DNA from: an uncultured Candidatus Saccharibacteria bacterium
GTDB lineage: Bacteria; Patescibacteriota; Minisyncoccia; Phycocordibacterales; Phycocordibacteraceae
NCBI GenBank assembly: GCA_964652615.1
Contig: CAZZAT010000003.1
Span: 1 to 57,302, forward strand
DNA: 57,302 nt
Reading direction: 5' to 3'
Positions 50,223 to 55,810 of this stretch are shown here, one piece after another (the first letter of the stretch is position 1; every line of letters starts with the position of its first letter). Position numbers and translations under genes: made by a program. The notes under the pieces are model-generated. The model saw only the letters and a list, made by a program, of their open reading frames with translations. It was not told the DNA's origin and ran no database searches.

Positions 50223-51788
50223 ATGAATAAAGGACAGAGACTCGATATTTCAAAACTAAGCAGGGAGGGTACTGCTTGGGCGGATGCTGCCGCAGATGTC
50301 ATCATTGCAGCACATCCGGACGCACCCCTCTATACGACTGCGGCTGGCATCAGTCCTTCAGGCGTCGTTCATTTTGGCAACTTTCGAGATATCGTCACGT
50401 CGCATCTGGTGCGAGAAGCACTAAAACGCAAAGGGAAGAATGCGCGCTTGATATTCTCTTGGGATAACTTCGACCGATACCGCAAAGTGCCTTCTGGTGT
50501 TCCTGAATCTTTTGCAGAACATATCGGAAAGCCCCTTTCAAAAATTCCTGACCCTTTTGGTGAGCTGTCTTCGTATGCCGAGCGCTTTCAAGCACCTTTT
50601 GTTGAAGCAATGGAGCGCCTTGGTATTGAAATAGAGTATAGAAACCAGACCGAACTGCATGAAAGCGGCGTGTATGACGAGGCATTGTTTGAAGCGATGC
50701 GTTCGCGAGGCGCCATTGCCGACATACTGCTCTCGTTTATGACCGACAAGGCAAAGGGAGAGAAGGGTATTGATCCGGTAAGCTACCGCGAACACTACTA
50801 TCCAATTGCTGTGTATTCACGCTTTACCGGAAAGGATGCAACGAAGATACTTTCGTATGACGGGGCATCAACCATTACGTATCTTTGTGCTGAAACAGGC
50901 AAAGAAGATACGGTAGACCTCTCACATGAGCATATTGCAAAGCTTGCCTGGAAGGCGGACTGGCCGATGCGCTGGCGCCATGAAGGCGTGCATTTTGAGC
51001 CGGGAGGACACGACCACGCTTCGCCAGGAGGCAGCTATGACGTCGCTTCCGTTATTGCAAAAGACATATTCGGCTTCGAAGCTCCTGTCTTCGTGGAATA
51101 TAAATTCGTTGGGATTCAGGGACTTGGAGCGAAGATGTCGGGCTCAAAAGGAAACGCCGTATCGCCCCTTGAACTCCTTGAAATATACGAGCCTGATGTA
51201 TTGAAATGGCTGTACTTTAGAAAGTCGCCCGACCAGTCATTCGAACTCGCCTTTAACACAGATATCTACCGTCAGTACGAAGAGTATGATGCGGAACACT
51301 CTGGCAGAAGTGCAATTCCATTTCGCCAAGCGGTCAGCTTTGGGCAAATCGTGCAGTGGGATACAGGGAAATTGAAACACATACTGGAGAGTCTCGGTCA
51401 CTCGTACGATGAAGAAAGTATTGCTACGCGCCTTCCACTCGCACAAAACTGGCTCGTAAAGTACAACCCCGAAGAAGTAATCGCTGTTCTTGATGCTCCC
51501 AACACCACATACAGAGCATCAATGAATGAGAAGCAAAAAGAGCAGATAACACGTCTTGTAGAAGAACTTGAGAGCAAGGCCGATGCTGGCATAAAAGAAC
51601 TGGAAGAACTTGTATATGCCATTCCCAAATCGCCAGAACTCTCTGAAGCTGACCTCAAGAAAGCGCAGCGCGCATTCTTCAAAGACGTCTATAACCTCCT
51701 TATCGGAAGAGATACGGGGCCGCGTCTTGGTACCTTTCTGTGGGTTATCGACCGAGAGAAAGCACTCAACCTTCTGCGCAGTTCATAG
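50223..51788 (+). CDS. lysS: lysine--tRNA ligase, class I
   Basis: AGISPSGVVHFGN, KLAWKADWPMRW, EPGGHDH, KMSGSKGN, GPRLGTF. Confidence 0.96.
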   Translation: MNKGQRLDISKLSREGTAWADAAADVIIAAHPDAPLYTTAAGISPSGVVHFGNFRDIVTSHLVREALKRKGKNARLIFSWDNFDRYRKVPSGVPESFAEHIGKPLSKIPDPFGELSSYAERFQAPFVEAMERLGIEIEYRNQTELHESGVYDEALFEAMRSRGAIADILLSFMTDKAKGEKGIDPVSYREHYYPIAVYSRFTGKDATKILSYDGASTITYLCAETGKEDTVDLSHEHIAKLAWKADWPMRWRHEGVHFEPGGHDHASPGGSYDVASVIAKDIFGFEAPVFVEYKFVGIQGLGAKMSGSKGNAVSPLELLEIYEPDVLKWLYFRKSPDQSFELAFNTDIYRQYEEYDAEHSGRSAIPFRQAVSFGQIVQWDTGKLKHILESLGHSYDEESIATRLPLAQNWLVKYNPEEVIAVLDAPNTTYRASMNEKQKEQITRLVEELESKADAGIKELEELVYAIPKSPELSEADLKKAQRAFFKDVYNLLIGRDTGPRLGTFLWVIDREKALNLLRSS

Positions 51789-51802
51789 GCTATACTCTCT
51801 AC

Positions 51803-52996
51803 ATGAATCTTGTTGAAGAGCTACAAGCACGCGGCCTCGTTGAACACGCTTCTGCGCCACTTGAGACCGTTCTCAAGGAAAAACGCTTCGTATACCTTGG
51901 CGTTGATCCAACCGCAGATTCGATGCAGGTTGGAAATCTTGCGCTGGTGCTTTTGTTAAAGCGCCTTTCAGATGCGGGCCATCGTGTGATGCTGCTGGTA
52001 GGCGGAGGCACGGGGATGATAGGGGATCCAAAAGAAAAGGGTGAGCGAGCGCTTGTAGACACCAAAACGGTTGAACGCAATGCGCGTGCCGTTAAGCGCC
52101 AAATGGAGCGCATTATCGGAACGAAAGTACCCGTCGTAAACAATGCGTCATGGCTTTCGAAAGTGCAGCTTCTTCCATTTCTTCGCGACATCGGCAAGCA
52201 CTTTACGGTAAACGAGCTCATAAAGCGGGACATCATACGCCGCAGGCTTGAAACTCCTGATGAAAGTATTTCGTACACCGAGTTCGCGTATGCCTTGCTT
52301 CAGGGCTACGACTTCCTCCATCTCTTTAAGACTAAGGGAGTGAATGCGCAGATAGGCGGGTCGGACCAGTGGACCAACATCCTTTCGGGTGTCGAACTCA
52401 TTCGCCGCAAAGAAGCTAAGGAAGCATACGCGCTGACCTGTCCTTTGGTAACTGATGCTTCTGGAAAGAAGTTTGGGAAGTCCGAAGGAAATGCGGTCTG
52501 GCTCGATGCGTCAAAGACGTCGCCCTATGAGTTTTACCAGTTTTGGATAAACCAACCTGACGCTTCAGCGGGAGAGTACTTGAAGAAATACACCTTCCTC
52601 TCCCTTCAAAAGATTGATGCGCTTCTTGCCGAACATGCAAAAAATCCAAGCGAACGACTTGCACAGAAAACACTTGCTGCTGAAGTAACAGAACTTGTGC
52701 ATGGCCGCCATGAAGCAACTGCAGCGGTAAACGCGAGCAATGCACTCTTCGGGAAGGGAGGAGACGTGTCAAAACTTCCTTCACATACCATTTCTCCTGA
52801 TGCCACGATTTTGTCTGCAGGTGCCCAAAGCTTGGGACTCTCTAAGTCTGAAATGCGCCGCCTTATCGATGCAAAAGGCATAAGGTTGAATGGGCAGACC
52901 ATAGAGACGGATAGGGCCTTTACCGACGCAGACTTTACTGACGGCACTGCCATCTTACAAAAGGGGAAGACCGAGAAGATAGTCATACGACGATAG
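51803..52996 (+). CDS. tyrS: tyrosine--tRNA ligase
   Basis: YLGVDPTADS, LQGYDF, QIGGSDQWTNI, KKFGKSEGNAVWL, C-terminal S4-like domain. Confidence 0.98.
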   Translation: MNLVEELQARGLVEHASAPLETVLKEKRFVYLGVDPTADSMQVGNLALVLLLKRLSDAGHRVMLLVGGGTGMIGDPKEKGERALVDTKTVERNARAVKRQMERIIGTKVPVVNNASWLSKVQLLPFLRDIGKHFTVNELIKRDIIRRRLETPDESISYTEFAYALLQGYDFLHLFKTKGVNAQIGGSDQWTNILSGVELIRRKEAKEAYALTCPLVTDASGKKFGKSEGNAVWLDASKTSPYEFYQFWINQPDASAGEYLKKYTFLSLQKIDALLAEHAKNPSERLAQKTLAAEVTELVHGRHEATAAVNASNALFGKGGDVSKLPSHTISPDATILSAGAQSLGLSKSEMRRLIDAKGIRLNGQTIETDRAFTDADFTDGTAILQKGKTEKIVIRR

Positions 52997-53050
52997 AACT
53001 TGTGTATGAGTAGAGGATAGCGAATCTCGCATACGCGGGATACTTACGGT

Positions 53051-53833
53051 ATGGCTAGACGTTGGACGACGGAGGAAGAAAACAGGTACCGGAAGGAACT
53101 TGTGGAGCTATACGTACAAAAGAACCTAAGCATAGGAGAAATTGGCAAGCGCCTACATCTTACCCAGGGCTCCGTATTCAAACGAATGCAGCGTCTTGGC
53201 ATACCTTCCACACCCTTAAGAAAACAGGGATACCTGAATACCCTTAAAGAAATCTCCTTGCCGAAAAAGAGAACCGAGAAGGTCGCGGAATTCTTCGGAA
53301 TAATGCTCGGAGATGGCCATGTGTCGCATTTCCAGACCTTTGTGACGCTAGGAAATAAGGAACTTCAATATGTTTCGTATGTCGCAAACCTGATGAGGGA
53401 ATTATTTAACACTCCCAGTAAGATCTTTGTCCGAAAAGACGGGTATCGAGACGTATATATCGGTTCTGTCGTTCTTACAAAGTGGCTTAGAGATGAAGGT
53501 CTGGTATCAAATAAAGTTGCATCGCAAGTAGACGCGCCTCTATGGGTGCACCAAAAGCCGGAATACATGCGCGGCTTTCTGCGTGGATTTTTTGATACCG
53601 ATGGCTCTTTATACCGGCTTCGTTTCGGAAAGCAGATTTCATTAACGAACCATTCGTTGCCACTCTTACATTCTTTACGGAAGATGCTCCTTGCATTAGA
53701 ATACAGACCGTCTGAGGTAAGTGCGTTTCGGGTATACCTTACTCGAAAAGGCGACATGGAACGCTTTTTCAGAGAGATATGTCCTGCCAATGCAAAGCAC
53801 CTCAGACGGTTCAGAGACTTGACGCGTCGGTAG
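53051..53833 (+). mobile_element. free-standing LAGLIDADG (DOD-type) homing endonuclease with N-terminal HTH
   Basis: AEFFGIMLGDGH and RGFLRGFFDTDGS motifs; N-terminal LSIGEIGKRLHLTQGSVFKRM HTH; stop codon lies inside tRNA-Tyr. Confidence 0.88.
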
Positions 53834-53906
53834 GTAAGTGGTCAAAACATCGTGGCTGTAAACCACGCGGCGTTAGCCTTCGGAGGTTCGAATCCTCCCC
53901 GGCGCA
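53824..53906 (+). tRNA. tRNA-Tyr (GTA), CCA not encoded
   Basis: Acceptor GCGTCGG/CCGGCGC+A73, anticodon arm CGTGG-CTGTAAA-CCACG, long variable arm, T-arm GGAGG-TTCGAAT-CCTCC. Confidence 0.93.
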
Positions 53907-53968
53907 CACGAAGAAAGACCGAAGCATCTGGCTTCGGTCTTTCTTATTTCTGTGCTATAACCGACGCT

Positions 53969-55810
53969 ATGAAGCGGGAAAAGGTGCTCTCATTACTCCT
54001 CATGATCGCGCTCTTTGGGGCGCCACTTTCTATTGTTGCCGAAGAGGGAATTCCTCTTGAAGAACCCGTAGTGGAAGAAGCTGAACAAGAAATGCTTGTT
54101 ATTGAAGAAGGTATCGGAGAGATTCTTGCCACCTCGACAGAAGCCGTCATTGATGAAGAACCTATTCAAATGGAAGCCGATGAGATAGAAGCTTCTTTTG
54201 TCGAAGAGGTCGAAGTCATAGACCCTAGCACCTATGTTGAAGGCGAGGTTATTGTGAAGTTTGAAGGCGAAGACGAAGCAATTCTCGTTCAAACGAACGA
54301 TGTGGAAGAACTCATCGAAGAACTGAGTGAAGATCCTGCTGTTGAGTATGCGGAGCCAAACTATATCCGCAGCATTAGCGTATTAAGTTCAACTACCGAC
54401 CCATACGCAGAAGAGCTTTGGGGTCTTGCAAAGATTCAGACAGATGAAGCGTGGGACTTTTCAATGGGTGAGGAAGTTATTGTTGCAGTGATCGACACCG
54501 GCATTGATTACACGCATCAAGAATTAGCGGGGAGGATGTGGGATGGGAACAATTGCGTAGGAGTTGATGCTTTGGGGAATCCCATAAACGGAGGATGCCA
54601 GCACGGTTTTGATTTCGTCGATAATGACTACGACCCTATTTCTGAAGATGGGTTCAAGTCATATCACGGAACCCATGTCGCAGGGACCATCGCTGCGAAT
54701 TTTAATAATCAAATCGGAGTCGTTGGCGTGGCGCCTAAAGTCAAGATTATGGCGCTGCGTATAATGGACAACAACGGTACTGGAAGTGTGGTACAGGGGA
54801 TAGCGGCCATTAAGTTTGCAACTGCGAACGGCGCAAAGATAATAAACGCAAGCTATTCCGGCTCCGGAGAGCACGCAGGCGAAAAAGAAGCTATCGAAAA
54901 CTTCCAGAATGCCGGAGGCCTTCTAATCGCCGCCGCTTCAAACAACGGAACTGACGGAGATATAACTCCTGCCTATCCGGCAAACTATACTCTTTCAGGA
55001 ATCATCAGCGTCGCTGCAACTGATCAAAACGATTTACTTGCTCCTTTTTCTAATTATGGCAAAAACTCTGTTGACCTCGGAGCGCCCGGCGTTGCCATTC
55101 AAAGCATCGAGCCAAATAACCCTTTTGGCGTACGTACACTTGAAGGCACTTCAATGGCAGCACCGCACGTGACAGGTGCCGTAGCGCTCATTAAAGCGTT
55201 TCGTCCTGCACTTGGTGCAAGTGATGTAAAAAGTCTCATTCTAAACGAGGGCGATACAGTAGCGGCTCTTTCAGGAAAGACCGTATCGGGAAAGCGTCTA
55301 AACGCATATGAGACGCTTCTTGCTGCAGAAGCACTCACAGCAGATACTACGCCCCCTGTCATTACCATTATTGGCGATAATCCTCTCGAGCTTATCGTAG
55401 GAGAGACTTTTACTGACGCAGGCGCAACTGCTGAAGATGAAACTGATGGCGACCGTACTGCACACATCACAACTGAAGGGACTGTTGATACGGCAATCGC
55501 AGGCAGCTACCCGATTACATACCGCGTAAGCGATCTTTCGGGAAATGCAGCAAGCGCAACGCGTACCGTTATTGTTTCCAATCCTCCGGCTCCTGAAGAA
55601 CCTACGCCTGAACCAAAACCAAAGAAACGCCGCAGCGGTGGCGGGGGAGGAGGTGGAAGTAAAAGCGATAATCCAGAGCGCACACCACAAGTGCTTGGAA
55701 ACAGTACGGCACTAACCCCAGAAGTACAGGCGCAAATAGCGTACTTGACTGCGCTTGTGCAGAAGCTTCTCGCGCTCATTGCTGCAATGAAAGCAGCAGG
55801 AATGACCTAA
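53969..55810 (+). CDS. secreted S8 (subtilisin-like) serine peptidase with Ig-like (DUF5011-type) domain
   Basis: Signal peptide; VIDTGID, HGTHVAG, GTSMAAPHV triad; DTTPPVITIIGDNP...DAGATAED Ig-like repeat. Confidence 0.95.
   Translation: MKREKVLSLLLMIALFGAPLSIVAEEGIPLEEPVVEEAEQEMLVIEEGIGEILATSTEAVIDEEPIQMEADEIEASFVEEVEVIDPSTYVEGEVIVKFEGEDEAILVQTNDVEELIEELSEDPAVEYAEPNYIRSISVLSSTTDPYAEELWGLAKIQTDEAWDFSMGEEVIVAVIDTGIDYTHQELAGRMWDGNNCVGVDALGNPINGGCQHGFDFVDNDYDPISEDGFKSYHGTHVAGTIAANFNNQIGVVGVAPKVKIMALRIMDNNGTGSVVQGIAAIKFATANGAKIINASYSGSGEHAGEKEAIENFQNAGGLLIAAASNNGTDGDITPAYPANYTLSGIISVAATDQNDLLAPFSNYGKNSVDLGAPGVAIQSIEPNNPFGVRTLEGTSMAAPHVTGAVALIKAFRPALGASDVKSLILNEGDTVAALSGKTVSGKRLNAYETLLAAEALTADTTPPVITIIGDNPLELIVGETFTDAGATAEDETDGDRTAHITTEGTVDTAIAGSYPITYRVSDLSGNAASATRTVIVSNPPAPEEPTPEPKPKKRRSGGGGGGGSKSDNPERTPQVLGNSTALTPEVQAQIAYLTALVQKLLALIAAMKAAGMT

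Follow-up and report, generated by a model that had tools for sequence, protein, structure and literature searches.

The closest described counterparts of the locus presented here are the free-standing endonucleases found in T-even bacteriophages, which take part in so-called intronless homing, and especially SegB of the phage T4 transfer RNA (tRNA) cluster, whose gene likewise lies outside an intron or intein and next to tRNA genes. In T4 intronless homing, alleles lacking the nuclease are found in relatives and flanking markers are co-converted (PMC2988022; PMC13096335), and the free-standing endonuclease genes of this phage embed promoters of essential neighbours, which is thought to discourage their deletion (PMC2988022). 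Among bacteria of the candidate phyla radiation (CPR), in the same phylum as the genome studied here, endonucleases of the LAGLIDADG superfamily also occupy highly conserved RNA genes, namely those of ribosomal RNA (rRNA) (PMC11270868; PMC11809585). In this work, we are analysing a LAGLIDADG open reading frame (ORF) that runs into a tRNA-Tyr gene on contig CAZZAT010000003.1 (assembly GCA_964652615.1) of an uncultured Candidatus Saccharibacteria bacterium, together with related loci, which are designated by L and a number; the whole analysed stretch of 57,302 nucleotides (nt) is called the window. We consider it likely that the gene and its relatives constitute a homing cassette, that is, a free-standing LAGLIDADG gene whose home is the tRNA-Tyr gene.

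The centre of the locus in the window is composed of the following features:
53051..53833, plus strand: free-standing LAGLIDADG ORF of 260 amino acids (aa), without a stop codon of its own
53824..53907, plus strand: complete tRNA-Tyr(GTA) called by ARAGORN, with the anticodon at 53858-53860, a long variable arm and CCA not encoded
53824..53833, plus strand: 10-nt overlap of ORF and tRNA, equal to tRNA positions 1-10

Read directly from the window, positions 53816-53833 are GAC TTG ACG CGT CGG TAG, and the terminal TAG (53831-53833) coincides with U8-A9-G10 of the tRNA; an identical 10-nt overlap is present in three related loci (L008, L009 and L066). Rfam model RF00005 scores 51 bits (gathering score 29) over 53824..53906 and is covered from 1 to 71 without a break, and the identity features of tRNA-Tyr are present, with GCGTCGG...CCGGCGC-A giving G1-C72 and A73, a cloverleaf, the GUA anticodon and the long variable arm. 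The initial annotation of this DNA had described a LAGLIDADG ORF whose stop codon lies inside an intact tRNA-Tyr gene and which is not an intron ORF, and both statements are confirmed. An element of the intron or intein type, some other mobile DNA borne by an integrase or transposase, or an assembly artefact could nevertheless be imagined, as insertions in rRNA genes are where CPR bacteria are best known to carry LAGLIDADG genes (PMC11270868) and the nearest solved structures are those of intein- and intron-encoded enzymes. We find such explanations scarcely credible: the tRNA is uninterrupted and Rfam reported tRNA only, and no intron family, over the 57-kb window, the ORF is in frame with no host protein, and integrase and transposase genes are absent from the cassette. 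Moreover, the window sequence was recovered as single contigs in three runs, all of them DNA runs, at depths of 11x, 16x and 113x, so the contig is not an assembly artefact.

A scan for homologues, restricted to one genome per species, provided 80 loci, of which 79 were evaluable (one was cut off), giving 80 evaluable loci when the window is included. A tRNA-Tyr(GTA) gene lies directly 3' of the ORF in 80/80 of them; the downstream gene was called by ARAGORN in 77 cases and recognised by eye in two (L071 and L077). The latter two had been candidates for exceptions with tRNA-Thr downstream, which was rejected, as a tRNA-Tyr gene missed by ARAGORN directly follows the ORF. These two genes (L071 3790.., L077 2027..) have an unusual D-arm (GGGTGCGTAGTCCCATAGGGGGTGGGA..) and were overlooked by the program, so automated tRNA counts in those genomes may be too low.

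The end of the ORF is located inside the tRNA in 66/80 loci and 0-9 nt upstream of it in the remaining 14, so that the overlap reported in the initial annotation recurs in homologues. Its length is 6, 10, 15, 22, 26, 31-33, 37/38, 54 or 61 nt, and in 27 loci the stop codon consists of the last two anticodon bases and base 37 (U35-A36-R37; UAA/UAG). The ORF itself is intact, with an essentially full-length match and no frameshift in 78/80 related loci and a partial match in the other two. The overlap is therefore a family trait beyond chance, while the borrowed stop codon is conserved in neither position nor frame. The conserved part of the protein stops a few bases before tRNA +1, and translation then reads on. 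A 334-aa relative at L201 (P0152) has a similar LAGLIDADG domain with a different N-terminus and lies between tRNA fragments (1-30 and 1396-1428); on its 3' side there are 170 nt to the 5' end of the next tRNA, without overlap.

Alleles lacking the gene are common. Metagenomes were scanned with the pattern GCGTCGGT..CTGTARA..GGTTCRANTC, in which GCGTCGGT is the acceptor stem and which is matched by 30 occupied tRNAs. This returned 120 tRNA-Tyr loci, with the gene in one (L091) and without it in 119, and at least 800 nt of upstream sequence was available for 87 of the gene-less loci. The upstream neighbour of occupied loci varies by clade: clpB in about 30, rpsB-tsf with a small membrane protein (C7/C13) in about 12, tyrS in 9 (the window included, with trpS downstream), relA-parB in 6 and miaA with a small membrane protein in 5. 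The tyrS flank is shared by eight related occupied loci and seven empty ones, and in the latter (L104, L116, L118, L120, L136, L168 and L187) tyrS is followed after 32-100 nt by tRNA-Tyr and then by trpS. The empty alleles for which the initial annotation had suggested a comparison do exist, and they include these seven exact tyrS-tRNA-Tyr-trpS junctions. The clpB context also has its empty alleles with clpB preceding tRNA-Tyr (e.g. L082, L090, L151, L153, L154, L156, L167, L175 and L179), and tRNA-Tyr without the gene was found behind parB, behind tsf-C7, and between a membrane-protein gene and clpB, the latter on the opposite strand. The gap between flank and tRNA in empty loci amounts to 14-114 nt. 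In the window the gene for the synthetase is a flank, outside the element:
51803..52996, plus strand: tyrS, tyrosyl-tRNA synthetase (PF00579, E=1.4e-75), the upstream flank in the clade of the window only

When 67 ClpB sequences are joined into a neighbour-joining tree, occupied and empty loci intermingle even at the level of sister pairs (L048/L173, L005/L125 and L060/L174), and the occupied L043 groups with L128 and L175. Judged by these comparisons of sequence, the gene appears to be mobile and not domesticated. As regards clpB itself, many Paceibacteria have it next to tRNA-Tyr, where it either precedes the tRNA on the same strand or follows it on the opposite one; given both orientations, the tRNA, with or without the cassette, is inverted relative to clpB.

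The tRNA genes of the two kinds of alleles differ in a defined region, which in the window corresponds to one further feature:
53824..53850, plus strand: tRNA nt 1-26 (27 bases in the window), the re-coded 5' part that presumably belongs to the element, with D-arm AGGTAAGTGGTCAAAACAT

Empty alleles carry a near-uniform canonical tRNA-Tyr, GCGTCGGTGGTAGAGTGGTCAATTACAACAGACTGTAAATCTGTCG...GGTTCGAATCC, with the D-arm GGTAGAGTGGTCAATTACA, unlike that of the window. The D-arms of occupied alleles differ even between sister genomes, e.g. TCGGATAGYGGCTATTCCAG, TACTCAAGYGGTCAACGAGG and the one in the window. The canonical D-arm was found in 63/81 empty and 3/30 occupied alleles (Fisher p=7e-11). Mean identity over all pairs is the same for tRNA-Tyr (0.72) as for tRNA-Trp (0.72), the controls being tRNA-Trp and tRNA-Thr, so tRNA-Tyr is not globally fast-evolving and the discordance is confined to individual close pairs. 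The D-stem of the window tRNA-Tyr (D-arm 53833-53849) contains two non-standard pairs, GGUA/AACA, shared with L008 and L009; we assume that this tRNA functions.

The canonical sequence has not disappeared from most occupied loci. Just upstream of the ATG of the ORF most of them have ..GGTAGAGTGGTCAATTGCAA.., the canonical D-arm, and local alignment over the 130 nt before the ATG detected a significant remnant of canonical tRNA nt ~1-27 in 45/79 occupied loci compared with 0/79 shuffles. This remnant is nearer to the canonical D-arm than to the working D-arm of its own locus in 46/47 loci (mean identity 0.82 vs 0.50). In most loci its acceptor-strand part has decayed and the D-loop core persists. 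The cleanest breakpoint, nt 26|27, is provided by L032, whose remnant GCGTCGGTGGCAGAGCGGTCAATTGCA is identical to the L160 tRNA, from an empty locus, up to and including canonical nt 26 and diverges thereafter. Mismatches between an occupied tRNA and its nearest empty counterpart cluster at nt 9-30 and among the partners with which nt 27-31 pair, and excess mismatches also flank the breakpoint (nt 27-30 and 40-45). The canonical 5' remnant on the upstream side of the ORF puts the insertion within the tRNA gene. The proposal of the initial annotation that the empty tyrS-tRNA junction is the target was therefore wrong in detail, as the same gene stands behind clpB, parB, tsf-C7 and a small membrane-protein gene and the remnant points to nt 26|27, whereas its suggestion of a class of intron-less, free-standing, tRNA-anchored LAGLIDADG elements is supported by the recurrent overlap and the empty alleles.

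In some loci without the LAGLIDADG gene, genes of other families have settled at the same place. GIY-YIG genes (PF01541, E ~1e-17) are present in L086, where the ORF ends 7 nt before tRNA-Tyr, and in L143, where it runs to tRNA nt 38, stops at the anticodon and has its own canonical tRNA 5' remnant just upstream. Genes of the PD-(D/E)XK type (PDDEXK_5/PF11645, E 2e-7 to 1e-21) end 3-8 nt before tRNA-Tyr in L085, L113 and L115. A family of about 205 aa in L103, L159 and L176, consisting of an N-terminal helix-turn-helix (HTH) and a second domain, abuts or enters tRNA-Tyr; it received no Pfam or NCBIfam assignment, and its MLYWAEGYK motif is possibly a single LAGLIDADG-like motif. That unrelated nuclease families have converged on a single site speaks for homing. 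In five loci (L089, L098, L117, L184 and L195) short non-coding inserts, 100-190 nt before tRNA-Tyr, are preceded by a duplicated tRNA-Tyr 5' fragment, and a hairpin (ATGAGAAATGAA..TTCATTTCTCAT) after nt 18 is common to those of L089 and L098. Such inserts may be what is left of lost cassettes, or they may represent a small element in their own right.

The encoded protein comprises three recognisable parts:
53051..53209, plus strand: N-terminal three-helix HTH module, aa 1-53, with AlphaFold (AF2) helices at 7-23, 28-35 and 39-48
53291..53317, plus strand: LAGLIDADG motif 1, FFGIMLGDG, with the catalytic Asp88 codon at 53312-53314
53576..53608, plus strand: LAGLIDADG motif 2, FLRGFFDTDGS, with the catalytic Asp184 codon at 53600-53602

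Pfam identified LAGLIDADG_3 (PF14528, E=6.7e-17) in the 260-aa ORF and, for the N-terminal HTH, sub-threshold matches to Sigma70_r4_2 and MarR. In motif 1, a set of 34 sequences shows no variation at G83, G87, D88 or G89, which are conserved to at least 90% in 81 sequences, and in motif 2, F176, G179, F181, D182, T183, D184, G185 and S186 are invariant in the 34, with D184 conserved to at least 90% across the 81. Residues M1, W5, L20, Y21, N25, R45 and R48 of the HTH are conserved too, and the module is presumably an extra DNA-binding domain. The AF2 model (pLDDT 89.3) consists of three N-terminal helices followed by two alpha-beta-beta-alpha-beta-beta-alpha halves. Its best Foldseek matches are the TliVMA intein endonuclease domain (7qsu, E=1.6e-11), I-Tsp061I (2dch, E=1e-9) and many I-DmoI chains (~1e-6); WhiA (8dy9_I, E=7e-7; 3hyj) and LAGLIDADG maturases (2ab5, 1p8k) are matched as well. 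A profile search of PDB sequences agrees in returning intein and intron homing endonucleases. The natural reading of the model and the conserved residues would be an active monomeric double-motif homing endonuclease with an added DNA-binding module. There are at least 744 relatives, nearly all in Patescibacteria metagenome bins; the best 120 listed are about 250-300 aa long and 53-74% identical. At 50% clustering 278 representatives score E<=1e-30, about 20 of them full length. NCBIfam holds no model for this endonuclease family, and among curated models only intein-containing archaeal proteins match. Annotation pipelines name such genes 'LAGLIDADG family homing endonuclease', 'WhiA' or 'hypothetical', and the remnant is overlooked.

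The resemblance to WhiA raises the question of a domesticated host factor, either a WhiA-like regulator or a chaperone or maturase for the unusual tRNA-Tyr, inherited vertically with repeated loss. The complete tRNA-Tyr linkage, the reading frames preserved at full length in 78/80 loci, the structural matches to WhiA and to maturases and the association of the gene with a non-canonical D-arm (only 3/30 occupied alleles being canonical) could all be understood in this way, and so could two observations that weigh against a homing cassette. The first is the absence of degenerate gene copies from the 119 empty loci: a hidden Markov model (HMM) built from 81 sequences and run against the 1.5 kb preceding each of the 120 tRNA-Tyr genes, translated in six frames, matched the intact L091 and, weakly, the HTH in L103. 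This is unusual for a homing cycle, and deletion bias in very small genomes could explain it. The second is the moderate correlation of endonuclease identity with ClpB identity (Mantel r=0.47), which indicates that inheritance is largely vertical between events. Domestication nevertheless seems improbable to us. Both catalytic Asp are invariant, unlike in WhiA, and the HTH is N-terminal instead of C-terminal; presence is polymorphic between sister genomes and spread over at least five genomic contexts, and most relatives do without the gene; the split-gene remnant testifies to insertion into a formerly intact canonical gene; and unrelated nuclease families occur at the same place. A vertically conserved, WhiA-like gene without empty alleles, which the initial annotation had named as the contrary case, is thus not what was found, given the polymorphic presence and the retention of both Asp.

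Several further points also count against the homing cassette. The correlation of the endonuclease with the tRNA is low (r=0.17-0.19; partial r given ClpB 0.15, p ~0.01), and it is hardly better for tRNA nt 1-26 (r=0.19) than for nt 27 to the end (r=0.13), a weak difference in the expected direction; these distance correlations are suggestive, not decisive, as to vertical or lateral inheritance. The Fisher test on D-arms allows for kinship only through inspection of the ClpB tree. The differences of occupied tRNAs extend to the 3' side of nt 26, which needs co-conversion or compensatory change. Polymorphism within a population was not seen in three source runs, and contigs of four runs are of one form without joints. 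In the window the remnant is not significant (score 14), the whole of it having decayed, so the insertion point for this locus rests on its relatives, and the putative recognition site is deduced from the breakpoint.

How the two genes are expressed can be predicted from three features:
52997..53050, plus strand: spacer between the tyrS stop and the ORF start, with a putative -10 box GATACT at 53039-53044 ending 6 nt before the ATG
53674..53702, plus strand: promoter-like pair within the ORF, codons 208-218, with -35 TTTACG, 17 nt and -10 TAGAAT
53911..53945, plus strand: intrinsic terminator hairpin of 15 pairs with a T-run, predicted to end both the ORF and the tRNA transcripts

In empty loci of the tyrS context a TATACT/TATAAT box ends 10-12 nt before tRNA +1. 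Of 79 occupied loci, 48 show a -10-like hexamer ending 6-8 nt ahead of the ORF's ATG. TTGCAA/TTACAA of the remnant then sits at -35..-30, the usual spacing of a sigma-70 promoter if transcription begins at the A of ATG. Such geometry would imply a leaderless mRNA transcribed from a hybrid promoter, and the spacing of GATACT suggests the same for the endonuclease mRNA of the window. Of 42 genes in the window, 12 have TAnnnT 6-9 nt before the start and 6 a Shine-Dalgarno-like motif, and the organism seems, on these motifs, to use leaderless mRNAs widely. A TATACT/TATAAT box 6-8 nt before the ATG is seen, e.g., at starts 19098, 20222, 31867, 32982, 42286 and 45509 and at the tyrS ATG (51803).

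The pair of hexamers embedded in the ORF recurs at the same place in 65/78 loci, where 25 would be expected; its distance to the tRNA is about 120-140 nt. Leu209 is encoded by TTA in 58/58 sequences, while other conserved Leu positions use TTA in 4-28%; in GC-richer loci the figures are 19/19 and about 5-10%, respectively. Leu216 is TTA or CTA in 63/72. The pair is held by synonymous-codon constraint, and we predict that it is the promoter of tRNA-Tyr, with a leader of about 115 nt. Synthesis of the tRNA then need not pass through the endonuclease mRNA.

Two accounts of the missing stop codon have to be weighed in this light. No terminator lies between ORF and tRNA and a strong one follows the tRNA, so a full-length mRNA must include the tRNA. 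Cleavage by RNase P at tRNA +1 and rescue of non-stop mRNAs by transfer-messenger RNA (tmRNA) are established bacterial pathways. The overlap, irrespective of what the gene is, might therefore be a selected off switch, as the initial annotation had proposed: RNase P would remove the stop codon, tmRNA would tag the product, and protein would arise only from unprocessed transcripts. The 66/80 loci without a stop codon before the tRNA and the arrangement of terminators agree with such a switch, and expression of homing endonucleases in T4 is likewise restrained post-transcriptionally (PMC2988022). We judge it rather unlikely, since 14/80 homologues terminate at a stop codon of their own, 0-9 nt short of the tRNA, the variable position and frame of the borrowed one look like neutral read-on, and the embedded predicted promoter would uncouple the tRNA from the endonuclease mRNA. 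A tRNA promoter inside the ORF is precisely what the initial annotation had listed as speaking against its switch, and at the level of prediction it is there in 65/78 loci. In addition, neither a tmRNA nor an RNase P gene was detected in the window by ARAGORN or Rfam. With some reserve, we lean to the view that the absent stop codon is a by-product of packing the ORF and a replacement tRNA 5' part into a small cassette: every frame hits a stop codon within the tRNA, hence there is no selection for a separate one.

Returning to the homing cassette, we propose a course of events that builds on what the comparisons show: the anatomy, the complete tRNA-Tyr linkage, the presence or absence of the gene between the same flanks, the remnant, the association with the D-arm, the constraint on codons, and the fold together with the catalytic residues. 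Its cleavage specificity and position, the promoters used and the direction of events are what we infer. The enzyme would recognise the canonical tRNA-Tyr gene, which is highly conserved in Paceibacteria-like CPR bacteria, near the boundary of D-arm and anticodon arm. With an occupied allele as the template for repair of the break, a cassette of some 0.85 kb would be copied in between tRNA nt 26 and 27. This cassette would begin with a short leader containing a -10 box, continue with the endonuclease ORF and close, on the 3' side, with tRNA nt 1-26 in a re-coded copy. The re-coded copy would join resident nt 27-76 into a complete functional tRNA-Tyr without splicing, and the D-arm being unlike the canonical one, the restored gene would no longer be a target. 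The displaced original 5' part would stay upstream as a dead remnant, whose TTGCAA/TTACAA would supply the -35 of the hybrid promoter, and the endonuclease mRNA would probably start at or near the ATG. Owing to the tight packing of the ORF and the new tRNA 5' part, the former would lack a stop codon of its own and read on to one in the tRNA, U8-A9-G10 in the window and U35-A36-R37 in many relatives. The second promoter, in codons 208-218, would drive the tRNA and make the ORF hard to delete. The idea of the initial annotation that clean deletion is difficult thus survives in modified form: the element is tied to its essential neighbour by carrying the working 5' part of the tRNA and a predicted promoter.

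Put together, this would be an undescribed, intron-free way of colonising an essential RNA gene, by a cut at the D-arm/anticodon-arm boundary, a re-coded copy of nt 1-26, a stop-less ORF and a hidden promoter. As a by-product, the element and at least two unrelated nuclease families in competition for its site would diversify the tRNA-Tyr D-arm rapidly and laterally throughout Patescibacteria. We offer this full combination tentatively, doubt slightly outweighing belief. The essential tRNA would then be a chimera of mobile and host halves and, more speculatively, a re-coded tRNA could escape toxins or defence nucleases directed against tRNA-Tyr.

Among the neighbours of the locus in the window, a class I lysS adjoins tyrS (50223-52996), and relatives have trpS after tRNA-Tyr, so that this is an aminoacyl-tRNA-synthetase neighbourhood. 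Directly downstream (53969-55810) a secreted subtilase is encoded (PF00082, E=7e-51), with an Ig-like surface domain and a Gly-rich and Pro-rich C-terminal stretch.

If the proposed cycle is correct, a homing endonuclease can inhabit an essential tRNA gene without a ribozyme if it brings along a re-coded spare for whatever it displaces, and this would be a third way of sparing the host, in addition to introns and inteins. It would explain the variability of the tRNA-Tyr D-arm among closely related CPR bacteria, the end of the ORF inside the tRNA and a promoter written in the synonymous sites of a nuclease gene. The family would also offer a natural set of LAGLIDADG enzymes with a predictable target of 20-odd bp and presumably matched immune alleles, useful for studies of specificity, as well as a natural test case for RNase P processing, rescue of non-stop mRNAs and leaderless translation in ultra-small bacteria.

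In comparison with known systems, SegB is a phage enzyme of the GIY-YIG family whose gene occupies an intergenic spacer between tRNA genes, while the CPR element is cellular, of the LAGLIDADG family and located inside the tRNA gene, which is rebuilt by a re-coded 5' part; the stop-less ORF, too, is a feature of the CPR element and not of SegB. In the interspecific atp6 replacement of Allomyces, the invaded gene reportedly stays functional through a replacement end carried together with the nuclease gene. Homing-endonuclease ORFs of fungal mitochondria lie beside partial duplicates of host genes, e.g. C-terminal parts of cob and atp6 (PMC6279837). The mitochondrial cases concern 3' ends of protein genes, whereas in the CPR element the part concerned is the first 26 nt, at the 5' end, of a bacterial tRNA, and the D-arm is re-coded and a hybrid promoter arises from the remnant. 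WhiA has the LAGLIDADG fold and an HTH in common with the tRNA-Tyr endonuclease, but it has lost the catalytic acidic residues, carries the HTH at the C-terminus and is inherited vertically, in contrast to the invariant Asp, the N-terminal HTH and the polymorphic presence of the latter.

The endonucleases of bacterial tRNA group I introns likewise home to a tRNA gene, and the intron of cyanobacterial tRNA-fMet is said to encode a PD-(D/E)XK enzyme; PDDEXK_5 also occurs at the tRNA-Tyr site (L085, L113 and L115). Unlike in those introns, there is no ribozyme at the tRNA-Tyr element, and function is restored by duplication of DNA, not by splicing of RNA. Integrative elements residing in tRNA genes bring a copy of the part that they displace, so that the tRNA gene stays intact. 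They depend on an integrase and usually use the 3' end, of which they make a faithful duplicate that serves as an att site, while the tRNA-Tyr element has no integrase, affects the 5' part and changes its sequence. The LAGLIDADG genes in CPR rRNA genes lie in introns or intervening sequences removed from the rRNA, and the tRNA-Tyr family differs from them by its extra N-terminal HTH. The report on these rRNA insertions mentions tRNA 0 times (PMC11270868), and in the literature searched, most subscription journals falling outside its coverage, no tRNA-linked LAGLIDADG gene of CPR bacteria was found described. What is new in relation to the known systems is the combination of a location inside a bacterial tRNA gene, replacement and re-coding of its 5' 26 nt, use of the remnant as half of a promoter and an ORF without a stop codon.

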